Assembly (NCBI GenBank): GCA_045594785.1
Contig: JAZNZE010000001.1
Location: 264 to 64,263, forward strand
Length of the DNA stretch: 64,000 nucleotides
Origin: Eubacteriales bacterium
Lineage (GTDB): Bacteria; Bacillota; Clostridia; Oscillospirales; CAG-272
Reading direction: 5' to 3'
The notes beneath the pieces were generated by a model that saw only the letters and a list, made by a program, of their open reading frames with translations, had not been told where the DNA came from and searched no databases. Within the stretch, counting starts at the first letter, position 1. Each line of letters opens with the position of its first letter. Positions 1 to 54,465 of the stretch are shown here, in pieces. The position numbers and the translations under genes were made by a program.

Positions 1-618
1 TGACGGTGAAACGCCGGCTTCGGCTTTAAAAAGCTTCCTAAAATACACCTCACTCATACCAACAAGCTCCGCAAGTGCCGGAATACCCAGAGATACATCA
101 GAATAATGTGCATTAATATAATCCCTCACGTCAATCATTTTATCCTTATTTGTCTTTCTGATATACGTTTCGCTTTTTGTTGCTATTATAGCAGAATATA
201 TCGCGTATATAAGGGATAATGATTCTGTAAAATAGGTTTTGCTTTGAGCGTTGTACAAATTTAACAGCTTTAAAAAAAGTTTTTCTGCAGAGTGGTCGTG
301 CTTTGGTGTGAAAAACGCGCTTTTTTTAGGTATATCATCGCTAAATTCAAAATCACAAAATATAAACCTGTAATCTTCGTTTATACACAGGGTATACCTC
401 TCGCCGCGCGAAAGATACATTATATCCCCTGCCTTAACCGTAAAGCTCGTTCCATCTTCACAATCGTAATTGCAGCTGCCCGAAAGAATATAAACAAAAA
501 CGTCTGAGGGTCTGCCGTCAATAAAAAAACGCTTATGACAGTTTTTATTTTCAGCATTAATAACTCTAAGTACATTTTTTATTAAAAAATTGTTTTGCAA
601 AATATCTGATTTTTCCAC
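1..618 (-). CDS. AraC/XylS-family transcriptional regulator (cupin sensor + HTH), C-terminus cut by window edge
   Basis: Not in the ORF track because it runs off the edge. Reverse-strand reading from GTG 618-616 (RBS GAGGTG = 625-630, 6-nt spacer) gives VEKSDILQNNF...AGDIMYLSRGERY (cupin-like). It stays open to position 1, ending ...GMSEVYFRKLFKAEAGVSPS, a typical AraC HTH. Divergent from the GRE operon. Confidence 0.75.
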   Translation of the reverse strand, partial: MEKSDILQNNFLIKNVLRVINAENKNCHKRFFIDGRPSDVFVYILSGSCNYDCEDGTSFTVKAGDIMYLSRGERYTLCINEDYRFIFCDFEFSDDIPKKSAFFTPKHDHSAEKLFLKLLNLYNAQSKTYFTESLSLIYAIYSAIIATKSETYIRKTNKDKMIDVRDYINAHYSDVSLGIPALAELVGMSEVYFRKLFKAEAGVSPS

Positions 619-768
619 AAAAATCACCTCTCTGTTTTTAATTATACAAGTTTCTAAGGCTAATTTCAAGCAGTTAAGCTGTTTTTGTTTCGAAAAATGT
701 AAAAATACTGTTTTTTACCATTTACAATTATAATACCGAGGTATATAATTAAAACGGAGGTAACGATT

Positions 769-2838
769 ATGAATAACCAAACCGATATTATTGATAAGAT
801 AAGGAGCTTTATTCCTATCGATGGAAAAGATGCTATATATACCGATTCAAAGCTAACAGAATATATTTTTGACCATTGTGATATTTTCTTTACGGACAGC
901 TCTCGCTTTTTCTGTCAAACGAGAGTTGGCGGTCAAATGTACGCTACTTACACCGAGGTTCTGCTTAAAAGATTTGATATCGAATATAAGCCTTATAATG
1001 ACGAGACGATAAAAAGACTTCTTGAAACTAATGCACTTGAGTGGCGCTTTGATTTCGGTCACACAAGCCCTAACTGGAAAGAAATTATCTCTCTGGGATT
1101 TGTTGGACTTAAAAAAAGAGCCGAGGAATATGAAAAGCATTGTTCTGATCCGGAAAAACTCCGTTTTTATTCCGCGCTTGTAAGAGTTTACAATGCAGCT
1201 GAGCGTTTTATTTACAGAATCATATCCAAAGCAACTGCCGAAGGCAGAACCGAAATAGCAAACGGACTTAAAAATCTGCTCGTTTCCGCTCCAAAGAATT
1301 TATTTGAAGCTTTCCAAATGTTGCTTTTATATCATAATATGCAGCATTTTGCCGAGCACACCTGGATAAGAACCTTTGGAAGAGTCGATTCCCTTCTCTA
1401 CCCCTTTTATTCTCTTGAAAATACCGATGTGGCAAGAGAGATGGTAAGCGACTTTATAAACGAAATTAACGGTCACGGAATGTCTGAAAATCAACCGTTT
1501 GCACTTGGCGGAACAGACGACAACGGAAACGACCTTATTAACGAGCTGTCATACGTATTTATTAATGAATACAGAAAGCTTAACCCGCCTTATGTTAAAA
1601 TTCACGTTATATGCACCGATAAAACGCCTAAGGATTTCTTACTTCTCGCTCTTGATTCCATAAGAAACGGAGCTAACAGCATATGCTTTTTCGGTGATAA
1701 TGCTCTAAAAAAGGCACTTTTAAAGCTTGGCGCTGAGGAAAAGGACGTATCAGACTATCACATAGACGGCTGTTATGAGGCAGGAGCATATGGAGAGCTT
1801 ACCTCCCCCGCTACCGCAAGAATGTCGATAGGAAAAGCTTTTGAATATACCTTACATAACGGAACTGACGTATTTACGGGCTACGATTTAGGGCTTCCAA
1901 TTACCGAAAAGCTTGATACCTTTGAAAAATTCTATAATGAATTTTTGCGTCAGCTAAAGAATTTATCCGAGCTTGTAAAAAAATACGTAGGTCTTATGGA
2001 AAAGCTGTATCCAAGGCTGCACGCAGGTCTTTTGTTCACATCAACGTTTAAGGAATATATGGAAAACGGCAGAGACGTTTTTGCCGGATTCGGTGCGAAA
2101 TATAATAACACCTCTATTTGCGGCATAGGTCTTGCTACGGTTGTCGATTCGTTGATGGCGGTCAAAAAGCTGGTTTACGATGATAAAACAATGTCTCTTG
2201 GAGAGCTATCCGAGCTTATGAAAAACAACTGGCGCGGTAACGAAAAGCTAAGACTTATGGCTAAAAATAGGTTTCCCAAATACGGAATGGCGAACAAAGC
2301 GGTAGATTTCTATGCGGCAGACCTTGCTAACCGGCTCGCTGATATGATAAACAAGGTACCAAATGAAAAAGGCGGATATTACCGCCTCGGACTTCATTCG
2401 ATAACTGTTCGTTGGCTTATGGGCTCTACCCTTGCCGCAACTCCTGACGGAAGACTTGCAGGAGAAAGCACCTCGCTTAACACAGGCGCTTCGTTTGGTG
2501 CGGACAGAGAAGGCATAACCGCACACATTCTCTCTGTTACCGAAATTGATTCCTCAAATTCTCCAAACTCGGTTACGCTAGACCTTGATATGCACTCCTC
2601 TATGGTTATGGGCGAAAACGGACTAAACGCTATGTACGCAACCTTAAAAACCTACCTCGAAAGAGGCGGATTTTCTATTCACTACAACGTTCTTAATGCC
2701 GATGTTTTACGTGCGGCACAGAAAAAGCCTGAGGACTACCCTAATCTTCAGGTTCGCCTATGCGGTTGGAATGCTCTTTTCAACAATCTTCCAAAAAATC
2801 AACAAGACGAGTATATAGCTCGTTTCAACGGTATATAA
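769..2838 (+). CDS. glycyl radical enzyme (PFL2 / dehydratase-lyase type), short form, substrate unknown
   Basis: 689 aa. The C-terminal fingerprint VRLCG666WNALFNNLPKNQQDEYIARF fits RVxG[FWY]x6-8[IL]x4Qx2[IVY]x2R (Gly codon 2764-2766). Cys loop is DGC335-Y-E337-AG (Cys codon 1771-1773). RBS GGAGG at 756-760. The activase gene starts 3 nt after the stop. Confidence 0.85.
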   Translation: MNNQTDIIDKIRSFIPIDGKDAIYTDSKLTEYIFDHCDIFFTDSSRFFCQTRVGGQMYATYTEVLLKRFDIEYKPYNDETIKRLLETNALEWRFDFGHTSPNWKEIISLGFVGLKKRAEEYEKHCSDPEKLRFYSALVRVYNAAERFIYRIISKATAEGRTEIANGLKNLLVSAPKNLFEAFQMLLLYHNMQHFAEHTWIRTFGRVDSLLYPFYSLENTDVAREMVSDFINEINGHGMSENQPFALGGTDDNGNDLINELSYVFINEYRKLNPPYVKIHVICTDKTPKDFLLLALDSIRNGANSICFFGDNALKKALLKLGAEEKDVSDYHIDGCYEAGAYGELTSPATARMSIGKAFEYTLHNGTDVFTGYDLGLPITEKLDTFEKFYNEFLRQLKNLSELVKKYVGLMEKLYPRLHAGLLFTSTFKEYMENGRDVFAGFGAKYNNTSICGIGLATVVDSLMAVKKLVYDDKTMSLGELSELMKNNWRGNEKLRLMAKNRFPKYGMANKAVDFYAADLANRLADMINKVPNEKGGYYRLGLHSITVRWLMGSTLAATPDGRLAGESTSLNTGASFGADREGITAHILSVTEIDSSNSPNSVTLDLDMHSSMVMGENGLNAMYATLKTYLERGGFSIHYNVLNADVLRAAQKKPEDYPNLQVRLCGWNALFNNLPKNQQDEYIARFNGI

Positions 2839-2841
2839 ACT

Positions 2842-3732
2842 ATGAAAGGTATTATAAGCGGATTTAAACGCCTTGCGGTTCATGACGGTGACGGTCTTAG
2901 AACTACGGTATTCTTTAAGGGGTGTCCTCTTCATTGTATCTGGTGCCATAACCCCGAAACCTTTTCCTTTCAGAAGGAGATAGCTTTATTTAAGCATAAG
3001 TGCATAGATTGCGGCTCTTGCGTAGAGGAATGTAAGCTCGGAGCTCTTACCAAAGAGGGATTTGATAAAAGCAAGTGCATCGGGTGCGGAAAATGCACCG
3101 AGGCTTGTCCTACAGAGGCTCGAATTCTTTACGGTACAGAATACGAGGCAGCCGAGCTTGTAGAAAAGCTGCTGCTTGACAGGGAGTTTTTCGAAAACGG
3201 AAACGGAGGCGTTACTTTTTCAGGCGGTGAATGTCTTATGCAAATCGATTTTGCTATCGAAGCCGCAAAACTACTCACAGAAAAAGGTATTAGTGTAAAT
3301 ATTGATACCTGCGGATACGTCACACCGCAAAACCTGGAAAAAATTATCCCCTATACCGACACTTTTCTCTACGATTTGAAGGCGATTGACAAGGACGTGC
3401 ATATAAAATGCACAGGAAAAGACAACGAAATTATTCTGCACAATTTACAGCTTTTATCCGAAAAAAACTGCAAAATCGAAATACGATACCCACTGGTTAA
3501 AGGATATAACGATAGCGAATGTGAAAAAATAGGAAGTTTCCTTCAGGGATTTAAAAACATTTCAAAAATTAAGGTGCTTAAATATCACGCTTTTGCAAAA
3601 TCAAAATATGACGCTCTGAATTTTGAAAATACCCTTCCCGATACGGTTACTACAGACGAGGATATGGAAAAGGCTGTAAAAATACTTCGCTCCTTTGGAC
3701 TCAACGCATTAAACGGTGATAAAGAGGACTAA
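2842..3732 (+). CDS. glycyl-radical enzyme activating protein (radical SAM)
   Basis: 296 aa. Radical-SAM cluster motif C28PLHC32IWC35. Two ferredoxin-like motifs, CIDCGSCVEEC and CIGCGKCTEACP. Also has the GGE motif (FSGGECL). Adjacent to the GRE. Confidence 0.9.
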   Translation: MKGIISGFKRLAVHDGDGLRTTVFFKGCPLHCIWCHNPETFSFQKEIALFKHKCIDCGSCVEECKLGALTKEGFDKSKCIGCGKCTEACPTEARILYGTEYEAAELVEKLLLDREFFENGNGGVTFSGGECLMQIDFAIEAAKLLTEKGISVNIDTCGYVTPQNLEKIIPYTDTFLYDLKAIDKDVHIKCTGKDNEIILHNLQLLSEKNCKIEIRYPLVKGYNDSECEKIGSFLQGFKNISKIKVLKYHAFAKSKYDALNFENTLPDTVTTDEDMEKAVKILRSFGLNALNGDKED

Positions 3733-3788
3733 TAAAAATGCTATTTAAAGCGATAATTTTTCAAATCGCGATAAATAGCATTTTCTTT

Positions 3789-5078
3789 TTATTTCACGTA
3801 GTAAGCCTTGATATCCTTGATTTTATGCTCACCGTCAGACGAATTAATTACAATCTCAAATTTCGATGCTCTGATAGCGGCAAACTTGCAGAATATCTTA
3901 TGACCTACGGTTTTACCTTCAAACACCTGAATTTTGACTTTTCTATAATTAGGAAGATATGCAAATACAGAGAAGGAAGTAATCTTTTGTCCTTCGGTAA
4001 TGTCTTCGCTTATCACAAGAGTATTTGAAAGCTTTTCTGCACTTGGATGCTGCCAGTCGGAATTTTCTACCTCATTATGCGTTACTGTATACGTATTTCC
4101 CTCTTTGACGGGCTTTGAATAACCAAGAGGCTTTCCGTAAGCCGCGCGGATTTTTTCACCGAGCTCAAGTACTCTTTTTGTATCCGCCTCCGGAAGAAGA
4201 CCTCTGTTGTCTGGTCCTATGTTAAGAAGAAAATTAGAGCCTCTGCCAACCGAGGATTCATACATTCCAAAAAGCTCATCAACGGTTTTCAGACTATCCT
4301 CGTTATTATCCCAGAACCAGAGGCTTCTTATCTTACAGTCACACTCTGCAGGTAGAAACATAGCCTCGGAAAGTATTTGTTCTTCCTTAGCAAGCTCGGA
4401 AAAATGAGTTCTGTATACTACGAGAGGATTATTAAGCGAAGCATAACCGTCCTCGTTTCCTACCCAGTGCACGCCTTGTGTCCACTCTGGATTGCAGAAA
4501 GTCAGGATATCGGGCTGAATTTCGCCTATAGCTTTGACAATACGTGGCTTATCGAATTCGTGCTCCTCAGAGCCGCAACCATCAAACCAAAGATAATCTA
4601 TCTTGCCATATCCGGTCAGAAGCTCTCCTATCTGATTAATAAAATAGTCGTCATAAGCCTTTGCGTTTTCAAAGCTTATAGCGTATTTGCCCCACTGCGC
4701 AGGCGAGTAATAAAGACCTACCTTAAGTCCTACCTTGCGGCAAGCATCGGTAAACTCACGCACAACGTCTCCCTTTCCGTTTTTCCAAGGAGTACCTGCA
4801 ACACTATACTCGGAATATTTAGTAGGCCACAGAGCAAAGCCGTCATGATGCTTACAGGTCAAAATTGCGTAAGTAGCGCCTGCCTCCTTTATGGTGCGAA
4901 GCCAGCTCTCGCAATTAAGCTCTCTGGGATTAAATGCCTCCATAGACATTTCCTTGCCGTCCCAGTCATCATGACCGGGATAAAAGGAGCGAATTCCAAA
5001 ATGAAAAAATGCGCCAAATTCCCAATCCAAAAATTCAAGTTTCTTCTCAAAGCTATTCATTTCGTTCTCCTTACTCAC
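3789..5078 (-). CDS. alpha-L-fucosidase, GH29 family
   Basis: 429 aa with WEFGAFFHFG and CKHHDGFALWPTKYSEY motifs typical of GH29. No signal peptide. Overlaps the upstream SDR gene by 8 nt. Confidence 0.8.
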   Translation of the reverse strand: MSKENEMNSFEKKLEFLDWEFGAFFHFGIRSFYPGHDDWDGKEMSMEAFNPRELNCESWLRTIKEAGATYAILTCKHHDGFALWPTKYSEYSVAGTPWKNGKGDVVREFTDACRKVGLKVGLYYSPAQWGKYAISFENAKAYDDYFINQIGELLTGYGKIDYLWFDGCGSEEHEFDKPRIVKAIGEIQPDILTFCNPEWTQGVHWVGNEDGYASLNNPLVVYRTHFSELAKEEQILSEAMFLPAECDCKIRSLWFWDNNEDSLKTVDELFGMYESSVGRGSNFLLNIGPDNRGLLPEADTKRVLELGEKIRAAYGKPLGYSKPVKEGNTYTVTHNEVENSDWQHPSAEKLSNTLVISEDITEGQKITSFSVFAYLPNYRKVKIQVFEGKTVGHKIFCKFAAIRASKFEIVINSSDGEHKIKDIKAYYVK

Positions 5079-5856
5079 TCTTAGGTATTATTGGATAAAG
5101 CTGTATAGTGTTTCCGCCGTCTATAACAAGCTCAGCGCCCGTGGTGTTTCTCGAAGCGGTAGCAAAATACCAAACAGCATCAGCAACGTCACTTCCTACC
5201 GCAACGTCACCAAGGGGTGTAAATCTTGAAGGAACGTCCTTATAAAAATCGGGATTTTTCTCCCATCGGTCTGTTTTTATCATACCCGGAAGAACCGCAT
5301 TTACTCTTATGTTATACTTTCCCAAGTCAAGCGCCATTGCTCGCATCATTCCGAGCTGACCTCCCTTTGATGCGGAATAAGCTATTCTATTTGGAATTGC
5401 TCTGTAAGCGGTATTTGAATTTATAAATATAATATTTCCGCCGCCCATTTTAATCATTCTTTTTGCCGCATACTCGGAAAGACAGTAATTCCATACCATA
5501 TTTGTATTTATTACCTTCATAAAATCGGTGAGAGGATTTTTAAAAATCTCTATACCAAGCCCCTGATCAGCAGCGTTAAGAACGAGCGTATCAACAAAAA
5601 TGCCCTTCGCGTCAAGGTCGGAAAACATAGCGTTAACCGCATCTTCATCAACTGTTCTTTCGTCAATCAGAGAGTCAATAGCATATCCGATTATCTTTAC
5701 GGCAGGAAATTTTTTGGTATATTCTGCCTGGGATTTTTCTACGGTTTCGAGTTTTCTCCCCGTAAACACAACGTCCCACCCCTCCGAAGCAAACTTCTCG
5801 ACTATGGCAACTCCCGTATTAATACACGCGCCCGTTATCAAAACCGTTTTCTTCAT
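5071..5856 (-). CDS. short-chain dehydrogenase/reductase (SDR)
   Basis: 261 aa. N-terminal Rossmann motif VLITGACINTGVA. Catalytic Y-x3-K (YSASKGG). 4-nt overlap with the upstream gene. Confidence 0.8.
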   Translation of the reverse strand: MKKTVLITGACINTGVAIVEKFASEGWDVVFTGRKLETVEKSQAEYTKKFPAVKIIGYAIDSLIDERTVDEDAVNAMFSDLDAKGIFVDTLVLNAADQGLGIEIFKNPLTDFMKVINTNMVWNYCLSEYAAKRMIKMGGGNIIFINSNTAYRAIPNRIAYSASKGGQLGMMRAMALDLGKYNIRVNAVLPGMIKTDRWEKNPDFYKDVPSRFTPLGDVAVGSDVADAVWYFATASRNTTGAELVIDGGNTIQLYPIIPKSE

Positions 5857-6728
5857 ATCGCGTCTTCCTCTCTATCAAAAACTCGCACATAGTCAACAAC
5901 GAACTCATCTCCGACTTTTGCAGCAATTTTTGCTTCTTCAGTAGGAGCGTGCTCTGCCGTTCTGTATCCGTTTACTTCCGTAGAGATAAGGATAAACTGG
6001 GGAATATGTGATACGGGACTTTCTGCTTTTTCTCCGTCCTGAACCCCGTCCACAAAAAACGTATATCCGTCAGACTCCCATAGAACACCAAACCTATGGT
6101 ATTCATCAAGCGACATTCCGCTTTTTTGTTCCCCTATGATCCGCCTCTTATGATCTTCTCCGTATCCGTCATAATGCAAAACGTGAACGCTGACCTCTCC
6201 GGGACTAAAGCTTTCCATAATGTCGACTTCTATTCCCGAAAGTCCAGGATCAAGGCTTGAACCAATAATTTGAGACTGAAGCCAAAAAGCCGACCACCAT
6301 CCCGCATGCTTCTGCAGCTTACAACGGCATTCGTAGTATCCGTAACGATGTGTAAATTTGGATTCTGTAAGCTTACCGATAGGCCATTGCAGACCCGAAT
6401 TATCTTCGTGCTTCACTTTATTGGCTACCTCGTCATTTGTGCGAGGTGAATCTACCCAATTTGCGCCGGTCTGAAGATGCGGAGAGCATATTTCCCCGTC
6501 TTTTTCAAATATTTTAAAAACTGCGTTTGAATTACCTTCAAGTATAACTCCATCATCAGAAAAGCAAAGGTGTCTTTTTCCCCAAATATGAGTTCTGTAT
6601 TCCCATTTTGTAGTATCAAGCTCTTTTCCGTCAAATTCGTCAGACCATGCAAGCTTCCAGTTGCCCTCAGGCAAAAGACTCGGCTCGTGTCCATCTATTT
6701 CAAATATTTTCATACCGTTTATCCTCAA
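5853..6728 (-). CDS. glycoside hydrolase family 16 protein (cytoplasmic)
   Basis: 291 aa. N-terminal WKLAWSDEFDGKELDTTKW. GWWSAFWL motif. Catalytic E-x-D-x-x-E (GIEVDIMES). No signal peptide. Confidence 0.75.
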   Translation of the reverse strand: MRINGMKIFEIDGHEPSLLPEGNWKLAWSDEFDGKELDTTKWEYRTHIWGKRHLCFSDDGVILEGNSNAVFKIFEKDGEICSPHLQTGANWVDSPRTNDEVANKVKHEDNSGLQWPIGKLTESKFTHRYGYYECRCKLQKHAGWWSAFWLQSQIIGSSLDPGLSGIEVDIMESFSPGEVSVHVLHYDGYGEDHKRRIIGEQKSGMSLDEYHRFGVLWESDGYTFFVDGVQDGEKAESPVSHIPQFILISTEVNGYRTAEHAPTEEAKIAAKVGDEFVVDYVRVFDREEDAI

Positions 6729-7885
6729 AAATAAAACTCAGTTTTAGCAGGTCTTATATCTGTAAGCGCCCCCGTGTAGTGCCTTAACGTATGCACCTGA
6801 TAAGGATGCTTTAAGCATTCTTGCTCGTTAATTTCAATACCAAGTCCCGCCTTGTCGGGAATTTTGATATATCCATCGTTATATTCGAGCGCTTCATTTG
6901 TAACGCCCCCTCGCCACTCAACGTCAGAATACATAATCTCAAGTATTTCAAAATTCGGGCAGGTTGCGGCAAGCTGAAGCGTTGCAGCGTTAGCTATCGG
7001 GCCCGAGGGATTGTGCGGGGCAAAAGGAATATATCTGCTTTCTGCCTCGGCGGCAATTTTCTTAAGCTCCATAATTCCGCCTGCGTGAGAAATATCAGGC
7101 TGTATGTAATCTGCCGCCATTTTATCAAACATAGGACGGTAGTCCCATCTTGTATAAAGTCTTTCTCCTGCCGAAATAGCAACCGGAGACTTGTCCTTAA
7201 CTGCTTTGAGAGCATCGAGATTATCAGGCGGTACAGGCTCCTCAAAGAACATAGGCTTAAACTGTTCCAGCTCCTTTGCGATTTTTATAGAAGTAGGAAT
7301 ATTGAATCTTCCGTGGCCTTCGATAAGAAGGTCTACTTTATCGCCAACCGCTTCGCGAACGGCTGCAACGCACCTGAGTGCTTTATCGAGCTCTGCGTTT
7401 GAAATATTCAGATAATTCTTTCCGAAAGGATCCCATTTCATAGCCGTTACGCCACGCTTTACGGCAATTTTAGCCTTCTCTCCAAACTCCTCCGGCTCCT
7501 TTGCACCGGCGAACCAACCGTTTACGTATATTCTCACCTTATCGTTTACCTTTCCGCCGAGAAGCTGATAAACCGGAACACCAAGACTTTTACCAAGAAT
7601 ATCCCAGAGCGCCATTTCAATCGCAGAAAGTGCAGACATAAGCACAGCTCCGCCTCTCCAATAAGCATCTCTGTATATATCGTGCCAATGCTTTTCTATC
7701 TCAAATGGATTTTTACCAACGAGATATTCCTTTATATGCTCAATAGCACCAAAAAGAGCCTTTTCTTTATATTCAAGAGTTGCCTCTCCTACACCTGATA
7801 TTCCTTCATCGGTATAAACCTTAACGAACACCCAATTTGTGCGGAAGCAATCTACGGCGAACGTTTTTATATCGGTAACCTTCAT
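6725..7885 (-). CDS. enolase-superfamily acid-sugar dehydratase/cycloisomerase (mandelate racemase/muconate lactonizing family; galactonate/mannonate dehydratase-like)
   Basis: 386 aa. The N-terminal capping domain is VFVKVYTDEGISGVGEAT...ALSAIEMALWDILGK. The barrel-domain acidic ligands lie in LLIEGHGRF / FFEEP / ISAGE contexts. 4-nt overlaps on both sides. Confidence 0.8.
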   Translation of the reverse strand: MKVTDIKTFAVDCFRTNWVFVKVYTDEGISGVGEATLEYKEKALFGAIEHIKEYLVGKNPFEIEKHWHDIYRDAYWRGGAVLMSALSAIEMALWDILGKSLGVPVYQLLGGKVNDKVRIYVNGWFAGAKEPEEFGEKAKIAVKRGVTAMKWDPFGKNYLNISNAELDKALRCVAAVREAVGDKVDLLIEGHGRFNIPTSIKIAKELEQFKPMFFEEPVPPDNLDALKAVKDKSPVAISAGERLYTRWDYRPMFDKMAADYIQPDISHAGGIMELKKIAAEAESRYIPFAPHNPSGPIANAATLQLAATCPNFEILEIMYSDVEWRGGVTNEALEYNDGYIKIPDKAGLGIEINEQECLKHPYQVHTLRHYTGALTDIRPAKTEFYF

Positions 7886-8559
7886 ACAAATTTTATCTCC
7901 TTATAAATTTCGGGTACGATTTTATTTTTATACTCAAATAAACTTGCATCTAACTCATCAAACATACCAAAATGAATCGGAACTGCAATTTCGGGATTAA
8001 TTCTTTCGCAAAAACGATTTGCATCAACAGTATTCATATTGTTTCCAACTCCGTTTATTGGGAGAAACAAGGCATAAATATCGTTTGGAATATGTTCGAA
8101 GTTTTTTTCGTTATAAAGAGTATCACCCGTGACGTAATACTTTTTATTTCCGTCATCAATTATAACGCCAATCGGAGTTGGGTCACTATGCTCTGCCCTG
8201 ACCGCAGTAACCCTTATTCCCTTTTCTGTCCAAGAAGTCCCATCATTAAAGAGAACGAAATTATTATTTCCACCAAGGCTTCGCACCACGGCAAAAACAG
8301 ATGCGGGAGATAGCACCGTAATAGCAGAATCCTCGTTAATAAATCTCTCTGCCGTTTCAGGATCGTAATGATCCAGGTGATTATGGGTAAAAATCATTAT
8401 ATCCGGCTTTATATCAAAAATCTCTTCGCAAACAGGCTGACGCCTGTAATTCTTCGGATTGACCTTTTCCACGCTATCCGATAGATACGGATCTATCATA
8501 ATTTTTACTTTTTCATTTTCAAAAAGAAGTCCTGCCTGACCAAGCCACGTAATCTTCAT
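7882..8559 (-). CDS. MBL-fold metallo-hydrolase (possible sugar-lactonase role)
   Basis: 225 aa with the HxHxDH motif (THNHLDHYD). First gene of the five-gene overlapping operon. Confidence 0.7.
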   Translation of the reverse strand: MKITWLGQAGLLFENEKVKIMIDPYLSDSVEKVNPKNYRRQPVCEEIFDIKPDIMIFTHNHLDHYDPETAERFINEDSAITVLSPASVFAVVRSLGGNNNFVLFNDGTSWTEKGIRVTAVRAEHSDPTPIGVIIDDGNKKYYVTGDTLYNEKNFEHIPNDIYALFLPINGVGNNMNTVDANRFCERINPEIAVPIHFGMFDELDASLFEYKNKIVPEIYKEIKFV

Positions 8560-8671: not shown

Positions 8672-9484
8672 ATGAAATTTAAACTTCCCGAAATACTGTC
8701 AATAGGAATTTACGACTCAAATATTGCGCTCAGAAGCGAAACCATTACCCAAAACAGAAGAACTACAAGGTTCGAAATAGAACTTCCGATTGAAAAAGGC
8801 GGTACTTCTTATATTAACGGTGAAGAAATGCAGATTGAAGAAAATATGGTTATATGCGCAAAGCCATCGCAAATCCGCCATACAAGGCTTCCATATAAAT
8901 GCTACTTTCTGTATTTGATATTGGAAGACGGATATCTTTACGATAATCTTATTAAATTACCTGCTTTTATAAAAACCGAAAAATACGAAATTTATCAAAG
9001 GATATTTGAGAGCCTATACAGTCACTTTACTTACGGTATAGAAAATGACGAGATAATTCTTCAAAGTCTTGTTTTGGAGCTTATACATAACCTAAATAAA
9101 GACTCAAAAACCTCTGCCGCGCGTGAGAATATAAATGAAAACAACTACAAGGCAGTCTCAAAAGCCATAAGTTATATAAAAAACAATCTAAGTGCTGACC
9201 TTTCCCTTGAGGCTATCTCAAGATTGGTTGGCTTCAGCCCGATACATTTTCATAACGTATTCAAGGCATCAACCGAAAGAACTTTACGCGAATACGTTGA
9301 GGAAAAAAGAATAAGAAAAGCCGAGAACATGCTTTTGACCACAGATTTCACCTTAGCCGAAATTGCATACGAATGCGGCTTTTCCTCGCAAAGCTATTTT
9401 AATTACGCATTCAAAAGAAAAAACGGTAAAACGCCACGCGCATACGCAAAAGAAGCGTTTGAGCGCTACGAGCAGCCGATATAA
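8672..9484 (+). CDS. AraC-family transcriptional regulator
   Basis: 270 aa. C-terminal double HTH (LSLEAISRLVGFSPIHFHNVFK ... LAEIAYECGFSSQSYFNYAFKRKNGKTPRAY). Divergent from the 8559-3789 operon. Confidence 0.85.
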   Translation: MKFKLPEILSIGIYDSNIALRSETITQNRRTTRFEIELPIEKGGTSYINGEEMQIEENMVICAKPSQIRHTRLPYKCYFLYLILEDGYLYDNLIKLPAFIKTEKYEIYQRIFESLYSHFTYGIENDEIILQSLVLELIHNLNKDSKTSAARENINENNYKAVSKAISYIKNNLSADLSLEAISRLVGFSPIHFHNVFKASTERTLREYVEEKRIRKAENMLLTTDFTLAEIAYECGFSSQSYFNYAFKRKNGKTPRAYAKEAFERYEQPI

Positions 9485-9502
9485 AGTAAGATTAACGCAA
9501 AA

Positions 9503-9538
9503 AACGGCATAGGACAAGTAAGCCTATACCGTTTTTTT
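9503..9538. terminator. bidirectional rho-independent terminator between the AraC gene (+) and the GDPD gene (-)
   Basis: Stem AAAACGGCATAGG (9501-9513) / CCTATACCGTTTT (9523-9535) with one mismatch. Flanked by an A-run upstream and a T-run downstream. Confidence 0.65.
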
Positions 9539-9539
9539 A

Positions 9540-10331
9540 TTATCTCACGCCGAGCTTTTTTAGAATTTCATCACATTTATAAATATCGTTAGAGGTAAAC
9601 ATTTTACAGCCGTATTCTATTGCCTTTTTATAATTTTCGAAATCATCTGCAATACAGATACACGGCAAAATTCCCTTTGAAAAACAAAAATCAAAGTTTT
9701 CTTTATTGTCAATAGCAAGTCCGCCCGCTTTTTCGGGATAAAGACAGCACCAATCAAAGAAATCCTCCTCCGGCATTTTGGGTTTGTCTTTTGATCGGCG
9801 GCAATTATATATTCCTTGTCCGTGCAAAATGAATTTTTTTCCATACCTTTTGCGGATATATTCAAGCAGACGCGAGCTGAATGAATTTATCATAGAACGC
9901 TCTGAAAGTCGGTTTTCCAAAATAAGCTCAATAAGCTTATCCGCCACGCAAAAGGCGATATCGTCTCCAAAATCAGAGGGATAAACCTTAAGCTCCCAGT
10001 TTACAAGTACCTTTTCGTTCTTTATCAGTGCGATAAACTCTTTTAGCGTAGGAATTTTTTCGATACCATATCCAGAAGAAAAGGGTTCTCCGATGTCCAA
10101 TTTCTTTATCTCGCTAATACTCATTTCATCTATATTTTTATCTACACCTGAAGTTCTTAAGGCACTACGATCGTGAATTAAGACAAGTTCTCCATCACGA
10201 GAAGCTCTTATATCGGTTTCTATCATATCAACGCCGAAATCAATGGCGGATTTAAATGCTGAGATGCTATTTTCGGGATGATTTACCCTATCTCCTCTGT
10301 GTGCTGCTAAAATTACCCTGCTTCCGTTCAT
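9540..10331 (-). CDS. glycerophosphodiester phosphodiesterase family protein
   Basis: Start trimmed to ATG 10331 (MNGSRVILAAHRGD...). The tracked 300-aa ORF extends into the upstream gene. Motifs AHRG...ENS...IETDIR are typical of GDPD. Confidence 0.8.
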   Translation of the reverse strand: MNGSRVILAAHRGDRVNHPENSISAFKSAIDFGVDMIETDIRASRDGELVLIHDRSALRTSGVDKNIDEMSISEIKKLDIGEPFSSGYGIEKIPTLKEFIALIKNEKVLVNWELKVYPSDFGDDIAFCVADKLIELILENRLSERSMINSFSSRLLEYIRKRYGKKFILHGQGIYNCRRSKDKPKMPEEDFFDWCCLYPEKAGGLAIDNKENFDFCFSKGILPCICIADDFENYKKAIEYGCKMFTSNDIYKCDEILKKLGVR

Positions 10332-10338
10332 ATTATTC

Positions 10339-11679
10339 TTAAAGCGAAACAACGCATCCTTCCTTAACAAGCTCACCTCTGAGCTCTTTTGTATCAACTT
10401 TCGAAAGAGGAATATTTTTGTCAATAGACATACAAGCCGCAATTCCTGCAGCTTGGCTCACCGCCATACAGGTTGCCATAACGCGCGTCATAGCAAAGAC
10501 AGTTTGGTCTACGGAAATTGTTCTTCCGCTCGCAATAAATCCTTCCATTTTCTCCGGTATCATACAACCGTAAGGGATACCTATAGCATGAGAAATCGGA
10601 ACGTAAGTCATACTTCCGCTGTCCTGACCGTGAATATCAACGTTATATCCCGCAAGTGCTATGGTATCATCGGGAATATCAAGTGTTTCAAGCGATTTTT
10701 CGGTTAAGGTCTTTATGCATACAGTCCGCCTGCTTTCTCGAGTTCCGAGAAACGGTATTATTGATTCAAGTCTGCAGTTCTCAAATCCGGGAGCGTACTT
10801 TTTAAGAAAATCTATAAGCTCGACAATTTGCATCTCACAATCAAATATAGCCTTAATAAGACTTTCGGGAACGGTTACGTCTGCATTTATTGCCCTTGTA
10901 ACGTTGAGAAAGGCCCTATCGGAGTTTGGAATACGGCAAAAATCAATCATATTTCTGGGAATGGTAAAATCACCGTTTTTGCGTGCCTCAAAAATCAGCT
11001 CGGGAAATCCCATAAATGAGAAAACTTTATCGTCATTGTACATTTCCTCGCATTGCGATACGTCACTAAATGTTTCGGGAAGCTTATAAGATTCGGGGTG
11101 GCTTTTAATATAAGAGTAAAACTCTTCCATATTAATGCAGCTTACCTCAAAGGTTAAAGTAGGCGGCTGAAGCTTCTCACCCTTTTCAAAAGGTATTCCC
11201 GCCATTGCCGCAGCCCATCCGTCACCTGTAGCGTCAATTAGCACTCTTGTGGCAAATTCAAACACTTCATTACGGCATCTAACCTTAACTCCCTTGATTT
11301 TTCCGTCACTATGCATAACCTCGCAAAGCTCCGAGCAAAGCATACACTCAACTCCTGCTTCAAGGCACATTTGAGTTATGATAAGACGCGTCCAGGGAGC
11401 GTGGATCATTGTCAGAGAATTATGTACCGGCACTCTCGCGTGACCGGGTGTTCCGCCTCTCTCTGCAAGTCTATCAATTAATTCTTGAGCTATTCCCTTT
11501 ACAACGTGATTTCCCTGTCTGTCAAGAAATCCTATAATCGGTACACCCGAAACGAGCATACCGCCGAGAAAGTTTTCTCTTTCAACCAAAAGAACCTTTT
11601 TACCTCGTCTTGCCGCACTGATTGCCGCTGGTATTCCTCCCGGACCGGCACCGACTACTATTATATCGTATTCTTTCAT
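10339..11679 (-). CDS. FAD-dependent oxidoreductase
   Basis: Dinucleotide fold YDIIVVGAGPGGIPAAISAARRGKKVLLVE. Start chosen at the second ATG (11679) because AGGAGA lies 5 nt upstream. The alternative start is 11697. Confidence 0.75.
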   Translation of the reverse strand: MKEYDIIVVGAGPGGIPAAISAARRGKKVLLVERENFLGGMLVSGVPIIGFLDRQGNHVVKGIAQELIDRLAERGGTPGHARVPVHNSLTMIHAPWTRLIITQMCLEAGVECMLCSELCEVMHSDGKIKGVKVRCRNEVFEFATRVLIDATGDGWAAAMAGIPFEKGEKLQPPTLTFEVSCINMEEFYSYIKSHPESYKLPETFSDVSQCEEMYNDDKVFSFMGFPELIFEARKNGDFTIPRNMIDFCRIPNSDRAFLNVTRAINADVTVPESLIKAIFDCEMQIVELIDFLKKYAPGFENCRLESIIPFLGTRESRRTVCIKTLTEKSLETLDIPDDTIALAGYNVDIHGQDSGSMTYVPISHAIGIPYGCMIPEKMEGFIASGRTISVDQTVFAMTRVMATCMAVSQAAGIAACMSIDKNIPLSKVDTKELRGELVKEGCVVSL

Positions 11680-11697
11680 TTTGTCTCCTTGTTTCAT

Positions 11698-12936
11698 TTA
11701 ATGAATTGCTCTTCTTAATCTCATAAGAGTTAAACGGTTGCGGACTAAAGGGGAATATTCCAAAATCAAATCAAGCTTTTCATTAGGTACACCGATATCT
11801 GAAAGCCTCTCTTTTAAGCCGAGCTTTTTATAGGTTCTTAAAAGCTCTTCCCCTGTTGGAATTTCTTCTAGCAAAGCCTGAATTTCGGGAAATTTTGCCT
11901 CCAGCAGCTCAGAGCTTACCTTTTCTGCTGCATCGTTTTTGTTTTCTTCAATTATAGAAGCCGAGAGCCTTTTGCCGAAAGCTCCTTCCACGTAGAAATC
12001 TTCTATTTTGGGATAGTCCTTAAACAAGACGTCTGATTCCGCAATTCTGTGATATTCCTCTGCAGCAATAAGCGTTCCGACACCAACCTTCTCTCCGTGA
12101 AGAGCATCGGATTTAATTCCAAGCGGCTCAGGCTGCATTTCTATAAGATGCGAGATATGATGCTCCGCACCGGAAGCGCACCTTGAATTTCCGAGAAGCT
12201 GCATGGCAAGTCCGGATATCAGAAGTCCGTATATCAGCTTTTCATAAGCATCCGAACTTTCTTCTTTTAAGCCGTCAGCACAGCTAAGCACCGCTTTCGT
12301 TGCATCAAGGGTCATTTCATATATTTTTTCGCAAAAATATTCACCGCATAAAAGCTTTCCCAGTCTCCATTCAAAAAGTGAAATAAATTTACCTATCATA
12401 TCCCCAACACCTGAACGGGTAAGATAGGCGGGCGCTTTTGAAATAACGTCAATATCAGCTATTACAAGCCTTGGAGACACCGCTGTAAAAGTCTTCTTAC
12501 ATCCCCGCCAAGTCATAGCTGCAACAGAAGAGCAAAATCCGTCTACACTTGCCGCAGTAGGACAGGAAACAAACGGAATTTTCCTTTCGTACGCACAGTA
12601 TCTCGTAATATCGTGCACCGTACCGGAGCCTATTGCTATCATATAATCGCAGCATTCGGGTAGCCTTTCAAGCAAAAGCGCTACTCCTTTTTCATTTGCG
12701 TGAAGATTTTCGCTCGGAAGAATAATTTCCATATCACAAACCGGACGAACAAGTCCCTCCGCATTATAGGTGTTTTCGTCATATACGGCAACGCTATAAC
12801 CGAAAAGACCGCACTTTTTCAGATACTTTTCAATTTTTGGCATACAGCCCTTTTCGATTACACATAGCTCGGTGGTCATAAAATGTTCCCTACCGCAGAC
12901 ACATTTTCCATTATAAATCCGACTGTCAATAATCAT
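11698..12936 (-). CDS. iron-containing alcohol dehydrogenase family protein, AraM / sn-glycerol-1-phosphate dehydrogenase-like
   Basis: About 413 aa from ATG 12936, 1 nt after the araD stop. Motifs GSGTVHDITRY, GAEHHISH and LHGEKVGVGT. The family call is by motif resemblance only; specificity is not established. Confidence 0.6.
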   Translation of the reverse strand: MIIDSRIYNGKCVCGREHFMTTELCVIEKGCMPKIEKYLKKCGLFGYSVAVYDENTYNAEGLVRPVCDMEIILPSENLHANEKGVALLLERLPECCDYMIAIGSGTVHDITRYCAYERKIPFVSCPTAASVDGFCSSVAAMTWRGCKKTFTAVSPRLVIADIDVISKAPAYLTRSGVGDMIGKFISLFEWRLGKLLCGEYFCEKIYEMTLDATKAVLSCADGLKEESSDAYEKLIYGLLISGLAMQLLGNSRCASGAEHHISHLIEMQPEPLGIKSDALHGEKVGVGTLIAAEEYHRIAESDVLFKDYPKIEDFYVEGAFGKRLSASIIEENKNDAAEKVSSELLEAKFPEIQALLEEIPTGEELLRTYKKLGLKERLSDIGVPNEKLDLILEYSPLVRNRLTLMRLRRAIH

Positions 12937-12937
12937 T

Positions 12938-13630
12938 TTATTGCTCCTTTTGACCGTAATAAGCATTTTCACCGTGTTTTCTGAGATAATGCTTATCAAG
13001 AAGCTCTTTTTGAATTCTTATATCGGGATTCATTTTTATTGTATGCCAAGCCATCATAGCTACCTCTTCGAGAATTATAGCGTTCTCGACAGATTTAGAA
13101 GAATCCTTGCCCCAGGTGAACGGACCGTGTGAATAGACTAATGCTGCCGGCATCTCTATTATGCTTTTTTCGTCAAAAAGCTCAGCTATAACCTTTCCTG
13201 TTTCAAGTTCGTATTCTCCGAAAATTTCCTTTTCGGTCATCTTGCGGGTACAAGGTACGTCTCCGTAAAAAGCGTCGGCATGTGTTGTTCCGAGTGCGGG
13301 AATAGGAGCGCCGCATTGTGAAAAAATGGTTGCCCACCGAGAATGAGTATGAGCTATTCCTCCTATAGAAGAAAATCTTCTGTAAAGCTCAAGATGCGTA
13401 GGAGTATCTGAGGAAGGATTGAGTTTCCCTTCAATCTTATTACCGAAAAGATCAACGACAACCATATCGGAGGGCTGCATTTCCTCATATCTTACCCCCG
13501 AAGGCTTTATAACGACCAGTCCGTTTTCTCTGTCAATTTCCGAAACGTTGCCCCAGGTTAACGTTATAAGTCCGTTTTCCTTCAGAGCAAGATTTGCACG
13601 GTAGACCTTTTCCTTTAATTTTTCAAGCAT
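12938..13630 (-). CDS. araD: L-ribulose-5-phosphate 4-epimerase (class II aldolase/adducin fold)
   Basis: Near-collinear resemblance to AraD: LTWGNVS...VIKPSGV...PSSDTPTH...GGIAHTHS...[10 protein letters not shown]...[10 protein letters not shown]. Start at ATG 13630 behind AGAGAGG. Confidence 0.85.
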
Positions 13631-13641
13631 AAAAACCTCTC

Positions 13642-13670
13642 TTGACATATATTGATCATTTATGTATAAT
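13642..13670 (+). promoter_or_regulatory. consensus sigma-A promoter (TTGACA-17-TATAAT with TG extension), probably for the DeoR regulator
   Basis: TTGACA at 13642-13647 and TATAAT at 13665-13670, 17-nt spacer, TG at -15/-14. It overlaps the araD leader on the other strand. Confidence 0.45.
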
Positions 13671-13762
13671 TATATCAGATGATTAATTCAAGAGCAATAT
13701 GTGGCGATATATTAGGCAAATGAGCAAATTTGTAGTATAAAATACGCAAAAAGAGGCAATTT

Positions 13763-14497
13763 ATGAGCATAACAAAAAGACAAGAAAGAATACTTGAGCT
13801 TCTTCGTTCGGAAGGCTTTTTATCCGTACTTTCCATTTCGGAAATTACTTATACCTCACCCTCGAGCATAAGACGCGACCTTGCAAGACTTGAGAATATG
13901 AATCTCATAAAGCGAACGCACGGTGGGGCAAGCGTGCTTAACGAAATAAACCAAAGCGTTCCGCTTAATAGGAGAATGACTAAAAACACCGTTGGAAAAA
14001 GAAAGATTGCCAAAAAAGCCGAACTGCTTCTCAAAGACGGACAAACAATAATGCTTGACGGGTCAAGCACAGCCTCGTTTCTTATTCCGTACATCGCAAA
14101 ATTCAAAAACACGGTTCTTTTTACAAACAATATGATGACAGCAATAAACGCTATAAATTACGGTATAAAAACCCATTGTATAGGCGGGGCTTCGGTAAAT
14201 GGCTCTGCCGTGCTTTCCGGAACGGAAAGCTATGAAGCCGTGGCAAAAATACATCCTGACCTTCTATTCTTTTCTTCCAAAGCTCTCAGCGATGACGGAG
14301 TTATTTCAGACCCAACCTCTGAGGAAAATTATCTTAGAAGCCTTATGATAAAAAACGCAAAAATCAAGGTGTTTTTGTGTGATAGCGAAAAGTTTTCCGA
14401 CACCTCAATATATACCCTAACAACCCTTGATGAAATTGACTATGCTATATTTGACGAGCCGTACGATAATTTAAAAACAAGCTGTAAAATTATATAA
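13763..14497 (+). CDS. DeoR-family transcriptional regulator
   Basis: 244 aa. N-terminal HTH (RQERILELLRSEGFLSVLSISEITYTSPSSIRRDL) plus a DeoR C-terminal sugar-phosphate sensor domain. Confidence 0.85.
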   Translation: MSITKRQERILELLRSEGFLSVLSISEITYTSPSSIRRDLARLENMNLIKRTHGGASVLNEINQSVPLNRRMTKNTVGKRKIAKKAELLLKDGQTIMLDGSSTASFLIPYIAKFKNTVLFTNNMMTAINAINYGIKTHCIGGASVNGSAVLSGTESYEAVAKIHPDLLFFSSKALSDDGVISDPTSEENYLRSLMIKNAKIKVFLCDSEKFSDTSIYTLTTLDEIDYAIFDEPYDNLKTSCKII

Positions 14498-18298: not shown

Positions 18299-18759
18299 TT
18301 AAAATCTGCCTCCTTAAATCCAAAATCAGAATTTTTCTTTATGTTTTGTTGTATTTTCTCGAGATAACTTATATATCCGTCCAGCTCTGAATCCGAAAAA
18401 CCTTCAAAAAGTGAGGTATCAAGCTTTGTAAATATTTTGAAAGAATCTTCAACAATATTTTTTCCCAGCTCCGTAACCTGAACCTCGTTATAACGGTTGT
18501 CGTCCCCTTGAACTCTTTCGATATAGCCGTCCTTTTCGAGCTTTTTCAAAACCCCCGTAATAGCTGCGGGAGTAATTCCTATGTGTTCGGCAAGAGATTT
18601 CTGCGAAAGCAGCTTTCCGTGCCTTGCTATATGCATAAGAACTCTATGCTGCGTTCTGTGCAGTCCAATCTTTGAAACGTTAGTATCCAAAAGATGCTTA
18701 TGCATTCTATCGGTCTGAATCATTATATTTACAGCACTCGAAATTTTTTCTTCGTTCAT
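18295..18759 (-). CDS. MarR-family transcriptional regulator
   Basis: Winged-helix core LHRTQHRVLMHIARHGKLLSQKSLAEHIGITPAAITGVLKKLEKDGYIER. Start at ATG 18759 behind AGGAGA; the tracked start at 18774 is a TTG. 4-nt overlap with the ABC gene. Confidence 0.85.
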   Translation of the reverse strand: MNEEKISSAVNIMIQTDRMHKHLLDTNVSKIGLHRTQHRVLMHIARHGKLLSQKSLAEHIGITPAAITGVLKKLEKDGYIERVQGDDNRYNEVQVTELGKNIVEDSFKIFTKLDTSLFEGFSDSELDGYISYLEKIQQNIKKNSDFGFKEADFK

Positions 18760-18917
18760 TTTTTCTCCTTTCAAACAAAAAATTAAGAGGTTAATAATTA
18801 ACTACTTAACTATTATAATCGTAAGAGTATACTTTGTCAATAGAAAACGCAGAGAATATATTGATTTTTTGTAAATATTATGCTATTATTTAACTATCAA
18901 TAAACGAGGATTTTAAA

Positions 18918-19376
18918 ATGAAAAACACAACTCTTTGTTATATAGAAAACAACGGTTGCTATTTAATGCTTCACAGAACCAAAAAGGAAAATGATGAAAA
19001 CAAAGACAAGTGGGTTGGAATAGGCGGAAAGCTGGAAGCCGGTGAGAGCCCTTTCGACTGTGTCAGACGCGAAATTAAGGAAGAAACCTCCCTGACTGCA
19101 GAAAAACTATCATACAGAGGAATCATTACATTTGTCTCGGATATTTACGGAACAGAATATATGCATCTTTTCACCTGCTCAAAATTTTCAGGAACACTTT
19201 CGGAAAAGTGTGACGAAGGATATCCGGAATGGATAAAAATAGAGGACGTTCAAAGACTTCCGATATGGGAAGGCGATAAAATATTTTTCGAGCTTTTAAA
19301 AAAGCCTACATCCTTCTTTTCACTGAAGCTTGTTTACAGCGGTGACCGTTTGATTTCCCACAAACTTGAATTTTAA
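18918..19376 (+). CDS. Nudix hydrolase (MutT/8-oxo-dGTP diphosphatase-like)
   Basis: Nudix box GGKLEAGESPFDCVRREIKEETSL. Confidence 0.8.
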   Translation: MKNTTLCYIENNGCYLMLHRTKKENDENKDKWVGIGGKLEAGESPFDCVRREIKEETSLTAEKLSYRGIITFVSDIYGTEYMHLFTCSKFSGTLSEKCDEGYPEWIKIEDVQRLPIWEGDKIFFELLKKPTSFFSLKLVYSGDRLISHKLEF

Positions 19377-19397
19377 ACAATCAGAAAAAACGGCGGT

Positions 19398-19913: not shown

Positions 19914-19966
19914 AGGGTCTTCCTCCAAAGATATTCTACCACCAAAGAAAGCTTTTGTAAATAGCA

Positions 19967-54310: not shown

Positions 54311-54445
54311 TCAAATAAAAAATCGAAAATTGCCTAAGCAATTCCCGACCGCTGATTTAACTCATCTGTCAGGATTTAGCACCTTACGCTATATGCATAG
54401 GTTGCCGGGCTTCACAGGGCCAGTCCCTCCGCCACTCTTGATAAG
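54311..54445 (-). promoter_or_regulatory. SAM-I (S-box) riboswitch with terminator-type expression platform, in the metK leader
   Basis: Minus strand reads CTTATCAAGAGTGGCGGAGGGACTGGCCCTGTGAAGCCCGGCAACC...GGTGCTAAATCCTGACAGATGAG, with P1 CUUAUC/GAUGAG and the aptamer at 54361-54445. It is followed by the hairpin CGGGAAUUGC/GCAAUUUUCG (54347-54324) and a U-run. Confidence 0.9.
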
Positions 54446-54465
54446 CATTTTATTTAGTTTTCTAT

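Follow-up and report, generated by a model that had tools for sequence, protein, structure and literature searches.

The window analyzed here, a stretch of 64,000 nucleotides from a Eubacteriales bacterium (assembly GCA_045594785.1, contig JAZNZE010000001.1, positions 264 to 64,263 of the forward strand), begins with a compact locus of 3.7 kb in which an AraC-family regulator, a short glycyl radical enzyme (GRE) and its radical-SAM activating enzyme stand together, and this locus is representative of a clade without assigned function. Judged by its sequence, the window GRE is no singleton but one member of a large, coherent and uncharacterised family that combines an active-site signature of its own with a trimmed architecture. 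With moderate confidence, we read the locus as a functional, substrate-inducible three-gene cassette whose enzyme acts as a C-O-cleaving 1,2-eliminase or isomerase on a glycan-derived substrate, new chemistry being a possibility.

The 689-aa protein matches the Pfam PFL-like domain (PF02901) with 295.6 bits over profile positions 139-645 of 647 and Gly_radical (PF01228) with 66 bits at residues 576-672, and it carries the Cys-x-Glu loop, G-C335-Y-E337, that the original prediction had noted. Cys335 aligns with Cys433 of glycerol dehydratase (GDH) and with the catalytic cysteine of HypD (chain residue 454, native 434), Glu337 aligns with GDH Glu435, and His98 aligns with GDH His164 and HypD His160. 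The glycyl radical loop around Gly666 is equally present, although its earlier description as clean was slightly generous: measured against the strict GRE fingerprint, RVxG[FWY]x6-8[FL]x4Qx2[IV]x2R (PMC13450708), the protein has Leu664 in the place of Val and Tyr682 in the place of Ile/Val, while the remaining positions agree. An AlphaFold2 model derived from 82 family sequences (pLDDT 94.8, pTM 0.93) is confident across residues 1-689 and displays a complete GRE barrel, for which Foldseek returns TM-scores of 0.88-0.90 to GREs of the eliminase and isomerase types at 19-25% identity, with none standing out.

The enzyme is unusually short, as had been noted from the sequence, since characterised GREs with solved structures span 759-897 aa (PDB table) and exceed it by 75-200 aa; a review of GREs gives their mass as typically 80-100 kDa. 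Because the PFL-like match enters the profile at position 139 with protein residue 82, the protein has less sequence at its N-terminus than the model. The structure prediction and the alignment to GRE structures that had been suggested to locate the missing elements were both carried out, and the profile alignments place the deficit in about 30-60 residues at the N-terminus, in a segment of E. coli PflD about 37 aa in length, and in trimmed loops that include the stretch of ~13 aa bearing Tyr339 in GDH; according to the GRE review, the N-terminal helices form the conserved dimer interface. A truncated or decaying gene, or a miscalled start codon, could account for a deficit of this size; however, we find such an explanation scarcely credible, because ~200 homologues from many phyla share a length of 680-760 aa and because the closest homologue, P0001 (88% identity), also counts 689 aa and lies in an identical gene arrangement (locus L095). 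Across homologues that share between 88% and about 41% identity, length stays at 680-705 aa, so that the longer N-terminus expected in close relatives of a truncated copy is not seen within this range. The start call is sound as well, with the AT-rich promoter region, its two promoter-like sites and the ribosome-binding site (RBS) listed in Table 1: the spacer is conserved in L095, with a mean column identity of 84% over an aligned stretch that includes the ends of both genes, and the promoter hexamers, the RBS and the N-terminal sequence are kept there. With the activase intact and the model confident over the full length, truncation or a wrong start is ruled out by homologue lengths, L095 conservation and the fold model taken together.

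The family to which the window GRE belongs is widely distributed. A search of 5.8 billion clusters recovered about 95 homologues at 28-88% identity, all of which have G-C-Y-E and Q-V-R-[LV]-C-G-W-N, and 1343 of 1.84 billion cluster representatives searched match at E<=1e-30; of the best 150 of these, examined further, 105 contain both motifs and most measure 680-760 aa. In an alignment-based motif scan of one genome per species, with relatives confirmed, the family appears in at least 597 species genomes, its hosts comprising Clostridia/Eubacteriales, Oscillospiraceae, Christensenellaceae, Lachnospiraceae, Victivallales/Lentisphaeria, Kiritimatiellae, Verrucomicrobiota, Planctomycetota, Chloroflexota, Bacteroidota and others. 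The clade is widespread among Clostridia of gut and rumen as well as among bacteria of the Planctomycetes-Verrucomicrobia-Chlamydiae (PVC) group, and the 80 loci kept from the scan derive from nearly exclusively metagenome-derived assemblies.

A distinctive set of residues holds this family together. Among 82 aligned members, D95, H98, R201, K277, S304, C335, E337, S569, N571, D605, N640, Q661, R663, C665, G666, W667 and N668 are invariant, whereas H279, Y336, E343, D436, Y445 and H609 are near-invariant (>=90%), and the window GRE displays the full signature. Nine of these residues (D95, R201, K277, Y336, N571, D605, Q661, C665 and N668) occur in none of the four characterised GREs compared, and W667 is common only to the family and to A. 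fulgidus PFL2 (AfPFL2) among those four. Tyr336, directly after the catalytic cysteine (1771-1776), is found in 81 of the 82 members and Cys665, directly before the radical glycine (2761-2766), in all 82; neither exists in any of the characterised PFL-like GREs compared, and the other GREs compared have Val or Leu at the Tyr336 position. A Cys in front of the radical Gly is also a feature of class III ribonucleotide reductases. In a neighbour-joining tree on Kimura distances (71 sequences, 598 columns, 30 bootstraps), the motif-bearing sequences are monophyletic in 29 of the 30 bootstraps, leaving GDH, HypD, AfPFL2, E. coli PflD and the representatives of other GRE types outside. A 2026 review that catalogues the characterised GREs lists none of this type and describes entire clades without validation (PMC13450708).

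Consistent with the tree, the window GRE does not fall inside any characterised clade, an outcome that would have spoken against the original prediction. All NCBIfam models other than that of the activase subfamily are missed by a wide margin: the window GRE scores 310 against a cut-off of 678 for GDH (TIGR01774), 273 against 1100 for HypD, 217 against 1109 for the PflD type (PRK09983), 186 against 1050 for CutC, 68 against 994 for PFL (TIGR01255), 219-226 against 1000 for the sulfonate enzymes, 226 against 1000 for HpfG, and 188 against 1150 and 160 against 1100 for the GRE decarboxylases (HPAD, IAD, PAD, AAD). Its loop, G-C-Y-E-A, is devoid of the adjacent Cys-Cys pair of the formate lyases (PFL, TdcE). 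As for the X-succinate synthases, whose Cys loop has no Glu, they are the most distant PFL-like matches apart from PFL, Glu337 is present here and no small-subunit (beta/gamma) genes accompany the enzyme. The best PDB matches are AfPFL2, GDH, HypD and PflD, with E-values of 4e-71 to 5e-58 for the first three and 4e-38 for HPAD. When compared to the C-O 1,2-eliminases (GD, PD, HypD, HpyG, HpzG, HpfG), the window GRE has the Cys-x-Glu loop and the general-acid His but neither the curated scores nor the binding residues, and similarity at the equivalog level is likewise lacking toward the GRE isomerases (YbiW, PflD, HplG), of which E. coli PflD is the only one in the tree.

The window GRE nevertheless shows partial likenesses to several known enzymes. 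The B12-independent GDH of C. butyricum (1R8W/1R9D), propanediol dehydratase, HypD and HpyG/HpzG resemble the window GRE in the 10-stranded barrel (TM about 0.89), the Cys-x-Glu loop, the general-acid His and the long two-ferredoxin activase; in contrast, the window GRE is only 22-23% identical to these GDH-type eliminases and about 100 aa shorter, has Tyr instead of Val in the Cys loop and Q-V-R-x-C-G-W-N instead of [IV]-V-R-V-A-G-Y-S in the Gly loop, and sits in a locus without microcompartment or aldehyde-processing context. YbiW and PflD, the C-O lyases of 1,5-anhydroglucitol-6-P and 1,5-anhydromannitol-6-P, are the only characterised sugar-acting GREs; they have a Cys-x-Glu loop, cleave a C-O bond beside a ketyl radical and share a GH motif with the window GRE, of which E. 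coli PflD is the top Foldseek match, yet identity reaches only 21-23% and their phosphotransferase system (PTS) or aldolase context is not seen at the window locus. AfPFL2 (2F3O), whose function is debated, is the best single-sequence PDB match (E=4e-71, 25% identity) and shares the Trp after the radical Gly (G-W) and a His at the position of His279, but it differs in its 776 aa, in its G-C-V-E and R-V-A-G-W-S loops, in the lack of D95, R201, K277 and C665, and in its place outside the family. Finally, E. coli YjjI/YjjW (DUF3029) pairs a short putative GRE with its own activase and has a Tyr after the Cys as well (S-C-Y-N); YjjI, however, is a 516-aa protein of another family whose relationship is only remote. 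Weak PF11230 matches occur on a few members of the family studied here, and membership in the YjjI family (PF11230/TIGR04040) was rejected on a BLASTP E-value of 0.12 and an hhalign probability of 87% that covers about 200 columns and is partial only.

The correspondence of His98 to GDH His164 and HypD His160, and of Cys335 and Glu337 to GDH Cys433 and Glu435, leads us to propose a C-O-cleaving eliminase or isomerase. In eliminases and isomerases, once hydrogen has been abstracted, a Glu removes the proton of the substrate hydroxyl, and GDH His164 protonates the leaving hydroxyl (PMC13450708). Modelled on the glycerol, propanediol and hydroxyproline dehydratases and on YbiW/PflD, catalysis would start when the radical-SAM cluster of the activase takes a hydrogen from Gly666, as homology suggests, and the glycyl radical would then give rise to a thiyl radical on Cys335. 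The latter would remove a hydrogen from a hydroxyl-bearing substrate carbon, whereupon Glu337 would deprotonate that hydroxyl to yield a ketyl radical and His98 would protonate the oxygen leaving group (OH or OR) on the neighbouring carbon; once this group had left, the product radical would regain a hydrogen from Cys335. The substrate would most likely be a cytoplasmic glycan-derived sugar or sugar derivative that is sensed by the AraC protein. The sequences directly establish that the gene is intact, where it belongs among the GREs, which residues are conserved and which regulator, activase and glycan genes are associated with it; that a radical forms, the type of reaction and the class of substrate are inferred.

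That the substrate may derive from glycans, a guess initially prompted by the neighbouring fucosidase operon, receives independent support from the operon of relatives 66-72% identical to the window GRE and from fusions with carbohydrate-active enzymes (CAZymes), and it is these two sources that make us favor such a substrate. In loci L010 and L020 (66-67% identity), the GRE and its activase form part of a co-directional operon, lying between two GLMA/GH42M-like proteins of 622 and 620 aa for which no informative PDB or NCBIfam match was obtained. Upstream in L010 are a 2111-aa SLH-anchored polysaccharide lyase of the heparinase II/III-like kind, seen in L010 only, and a solute-binding protein; downstream are a tagaturonate reductase (617 bits against a cut-off of 359) and an altronate dehydratase-family protein in L010 and a GDSL esterase in L020. 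In L014 (72% identity over a truncated copy) only the downstream part of the operon is visible, and GDSL esterases also flank family copies in L001 and L008. A Pfam census of 105 neighbours other than the cassette genes yields SASA and EamA four times each, and GH106, GH78, GH2, apiosidase-like, GH39, GFO/IDH/MocA and GDSL twice each.

Six of the 150 representatives examined are long fusions (941-1563 aa) with the GRE domain at the C-terminus, preceded by a GH78-like rhamnosidase (P0222), a GH2 beta-mannosidase-like domain (P0248), a SASA carbohydrate esterase (P0255), an AXE1 acetyl-xylan esterase (P0267), a 3-keto-disaccharide hydrolase (P0250) or a region without recognised domain (P0259). 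All six lie inside the family clade and retain its catalytic signature, except for Thr at position 665 in P0250. The four examined on their contigs (L090-L093) are each a continuous open reading frame (ORF), and the surroundings of three contain genes of glycan degradation, namely, respectively, three GH92 genes, GH2 with GH127, and a GH42-like gene with a GFO/IDH/MocA oxidoreductase and an esterase, P0248 having only unannotated neighbours on a short contig. Signal-peptide-like N-termini are found in five of the six fusions and a lipobox-like A-C-G in two, and no activase is encoded in the available flanks of the fusion genes. A literature search for fusions of GREs with CAZymes and for GREs in PVC bacteria gave nothing relevant.

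What accompanies the enzyme most faithfully is its own regulator and activase. Among 71 non-redundant homologous loci from several phyla in which ORFs were called and neighbours clustered, an activase recurs in 45 (on the strand of the GRE and at position +1 in 36 of the 71) and a divergent AraC regulator of ~270 aa in 36, mostly at position -1, whereas the next most frequent neighbour family reaches 5; shell proteins, transporters and dedicated downstream enzymes are not among the companions of the cassette in these loci. Since only activase and AraC recur, they and the GRE appear to form a self-contained and presumably substrate-inducible module, two of which stand side by side in several genomes. 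The cupin sensor of the window AraC is 25-39% identical to those of AraC proteins beside GRE homologues elsewhere, a homology of sensor domains across loci which indicates that the regulator has been inherited together with the enzyme. The 206 aa of the regulator inside the window comprise, as had been recognized, the cupin sensor (Cupin_3, 24.2 bits against a cut-off of 23.5) followed by an AraC helix-turn-helix (HTH) that begins at the window edge (HTH_AraC at residues 182-206, Pfam); in L095 the full-length protein has 266 aa. A search for repeats in the control region gave short matches only, easily expected by chance. The activase is indeed of the dedicated, long two-ferredoxin type: a CX3CX2C motif at residues 28-35 (nt 2923-2946) precedes ferredoxin-type CX2CX2CX3C motifs at residues 54-64 (nt 3001-3033) and 79-89 (nt 3076-3108), and the protein passes the GRE-activase subfamily model TIGR02494 (287.9 bits against 174), its best equivalog match being the HypD activase, under that model's cut-off (NCBIfam).

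Several observations weigh against reading the window GRE as an eliminase or isomerase of glycan-derived compounds. The substrate contacts of known eliminases are replaced, GDH His281/HypD Asp278 by Trp199, GDH Asp447 by Ala348 and GDH Tyr640 by His543, the loop bearing GDH Tyr339 is deleted and GDH Ser282 is also replaced or deleted, so that nothing about the substrate can be transferred from those enzymes. Nor is the Cys-x-Glu loop the dehydratase-type mark it had been taken for: it does set the enzyme apart from PFL, with its Cys-Cys pair, but it also occurs in GRE isomerases and in the decarboxylase HPAD (Cys503/Glu505; PMC13450708). Which of the residues D95, R201, K277, H279 and D605 line the pocket is judged from alignment only, and the literature searched for the family contained no describing paper and no biochemical data for any member. 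On the genomic side, the CAZyme fusions are 29-33% identical to the window GRE and therefore inform the substrate class of the family rather than that of the window subclade; the neighbour census points to glycans in a suggestive manner only, its counts having no rigorous background rate; and neighbours beyond the cassette are variable and may in many cases be coincidental in glycan-rich genomes. The window residues at the GDH/HypD contact positions (Trp199, Ile200, Asn241, Ala348, Arg351, His543 and Ile545) vary among subclades, and such variation around a constant core signature fits a shared chemistry with paralogue-specific substrates.

The same evidence bears on what else the enzyme could be. 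An eliminase-type GRE might act on a small polar non-carbohydrate compound, such as an amino alcohol, hydroxy acid, sulfonate or phosphonate, next to glycan genes that would be there by coincidence; this would agree with a conserved neighbourhood reduced to regulator and activase, with contexts free of CAZymes such as those of L008 (G3P dehydrogenase/GDPD) and L003 (pyruvate kinase), with the GDPD/aldolase/DeoR cluster at 9.5-14.5 kb of the window and with the invariant charged residues R201 and K277, which could bind an anion. We deem it unlikely, though deserving of attention, given five independent fusions of carbohydrate-active domains to members of the family, the co-directional placement of the closest named-genome relatives in a polysaccharide/galacturonate operon and the low scores with the sulfonate-enzyme models. 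A compact but isofunctional glycerol or 1,2-propanediol dehydratase, serving for instance fucose-derived propanediol, is suggested by the presence of diol dehydratases and of glycerol dehydratase 1r8w (E=2e-64) among the best matches, by the adjoining operon with its GH29 fucosidase and by the retention of the His and of Cys-x-Glu. Yet all five GDH residues considered above (His281, Ser282, Tyr339, Asp447 and Tyr640) are replaced or deleted, the TIGR01774 score is less than half its cut-off, GDH lies outside the family clade, and neither the window nor the homologous loci contain a shell, aldehyde dehydrogenase or 1,3-propanediol dehydrogenase gene; moreover, the canonical 842-aa GRE with bacterial microcompartment (BMC) genes that lies beside a family member in L003 implies distinct roles for the two. 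Lost binding residues and context thus lead us to reject this identity, which we regard as very improbable.

A different radical reaction altogether, with a direct part for Tyr336 and Cys665, is a further candidate; it might be a Kolbe-type decarboxylation whose substrate is a sugar acid or arylacetate, a cleavage of C-C bonds or a transformation new to GREs. In its favor, these two family-specific residues flank the catalytic ones and are absent from the characterised GREs compared, HPAD shares the Cys-x-Glu pattern, and a stand-alone cassette without downstream enzymes resembles those of decarboxylases, whose products are terminal. The decarboxylases are nonetheless the more distant relatives, with HPAD at E=4e-38 against 4e-71 to 5e-58 for PFL2, GDH and HypD; their G-G-C-L-E loop is not present, the gap of 3 nt between GRE and activase holds no small ORF for an HPAD-type Fe-S subunit, and the eliminase His is kept. 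To such a reaction we accord little probability, and C-O cleavage of a glycan-derived compound remains our preferred reading.

A broader proposal, which we advance tentatively and consider improbable at present, is that the whole family constitutes an unrecognised class of radical carbohydrate C-O lyases, of which some PVC members are apparently exported. By ketyl-radical beta-elimination such enzymes may break those C-O bonds of sugars that are difficult for hydrolases when oxygen is absent. Glycosidic or ether bonds, for instance at O-methyl groups or in anhydro bridges, would be candidates, as would a vicinal diol that is turned into a keto-deoxy sugar which falls apart. Paralogues, each with its own AraC sensor, may be tuned to different sugars, and in some Verrucomicrobiota/PVC bacteria the enzymes may carry fused glycoside hydrolase or esterase domains and leave the cytoplasm, at least once by means of a twin-arginine signal.

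In locus L074 (Verrucomicrobia bacterium UBA3624, DFLH01000041.1), a span of 20 kb contains four GRE-family paralogues together with a single radical-SAM activase (Table 1), and two of the paralogues start with near-identical twin-arginine signals (MKATRRKFLGGMAAVGSMGWRAFGAPA). Activation in the cytoplasm is hard to reconcile with these signals, unless export follows folding and activation. Export of a glycyl radical enzyme is not known to us from any report, and the putative export in L074, if real, may be unprecedented; it would mean that a pre-activated radical enzyme acts outside the cytoplasm.

These findings matter beyond the window because GRE reactions of gut microbes include the formation of trimethylamine, p-cresol, skatole and H2S. 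The fusions and operon contexts provide a concrete and testable substrate class, glycan-derived sugars, and, should it prove correct, radical chemistry would become one more means by which polysaccharides are degraded anaerobically, and the short GRE form would offer a convenient model enzyme.

Table 1. Coordinates of the window locus and its surroundings and, in the last five rows, of the paralogues in L074 (DFLH01000041.1).
Feature	Position	Strand	Remarks
AraC-family regulator, N-terminal part	1-618	-	Cupin_3 and start of HTH; GTG start at 618-616; clipped by window edge
Divergent control region	619-768		150 bp, AT-rich; sequence inspection and comparison with L095
Promoter-like site TTGAAA-17-TATAAT	669-641	-	11/12 positions matched
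Promoter-like site TTTACA-17-TATAAT	721-749	+	11/12 positions matched
RBS GGAGG	756-760	+	8 nt ahead of ATG at 769
Glycyl radical enzyme	769-2838	+	689 aa, 78.2 kDa; Pfam PFL-like and Gly_radical
D95-F-G-H98	1051-1062	+	contains His98
Cys loop G334-C335-Y336-E337	1768-1779	+	C335, predicted thiyl-radical Cys; E337, predicted catalytic Glu
Gly loop Q661-V-R-L-C665-G666-W-N668	2749-2772	+	Gly666, predicted radical site; Cys665 immediately before
Radical-SAM GRE-activating enzyme	2842-3732	+	296 aa; 3 nt after GRE stop (intergenic 2839-2841)
GH29 alpha-L-fucosidase	3789-5078	-	convergent operon
SDR	5071-5856	-	convergent operon
GH16-like protein	5853-6728	-	convergent operon; no obvious signal peptide
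Galactonate dehydratase	6725-7885	-	convergent operon; NF010624 364 bits vs 311
MBL-fold hydrolase	7882-8559	-	convergent operon
Second AraC	8672-9484		divergent from convergent operon
L074 GRE paralogue	2555-5023
L074 GRE paralogue	9509-11782
L074 GRE paralogue	about 15575-17916
L074 GRE paralogue	19742-21749
L074 radical-SAM activase	18879-19673

The surroundings of the cassette in the window agree with their earlier description, in that the convergent fucosidase/GH16/sugar-acid operon occupies 3789-8559 and no microcompartment, aldehyde dehydrogenase or transporter gene adjoins the GRE, a context unlike that of characterised GRE loci. L095 reproduces this layout as far as its contig extends, with AraC, GRE and activase followed by convergent fucosidase, SDR, GH16 and MR_MLE genes. 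Farther along the window, positions 9543-14497 encode a GDPD phosphodiesterase, an FAD-dependent oxidoreductase, Fe-ADH_2, a class II aldolase and a divergent DeoR, and in L008, too, a GDPD and a DeoR gene follow closely downstream of the GRE and its activase; their presence beside the cassette may reflect an ancestral synteny that the fucosidase operon interrupts in the window.

In L003, the family member P0058 and its AraC (9062-12459), with no adjacent activase, are flanked by a pyruvate kinase gene on one side and by a 76-aa C-terminal fragment of pyruvate kinase on the other, which looks like an insertion of the cassette at this place; the canonical GRE of this locus (G-C-V-E-P), its activase and a BMC shell gene follow 4.5 kb downstream, at 16647-20336. 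Outside the family, two GRE homologues of 867 aa (P0097 and P0098) have an N-terminal AraC HTH (PF12833/PF00165) fused to the PFL-like domain, an odd union of regulator and enzyme for a radical enzyme. Elsewhere in the window, a SAM riboswitch (RF00162, 76 bits) is found at 54359-54447 on the minus strand, upstream of a 394-aa ORF at 53107-54291.

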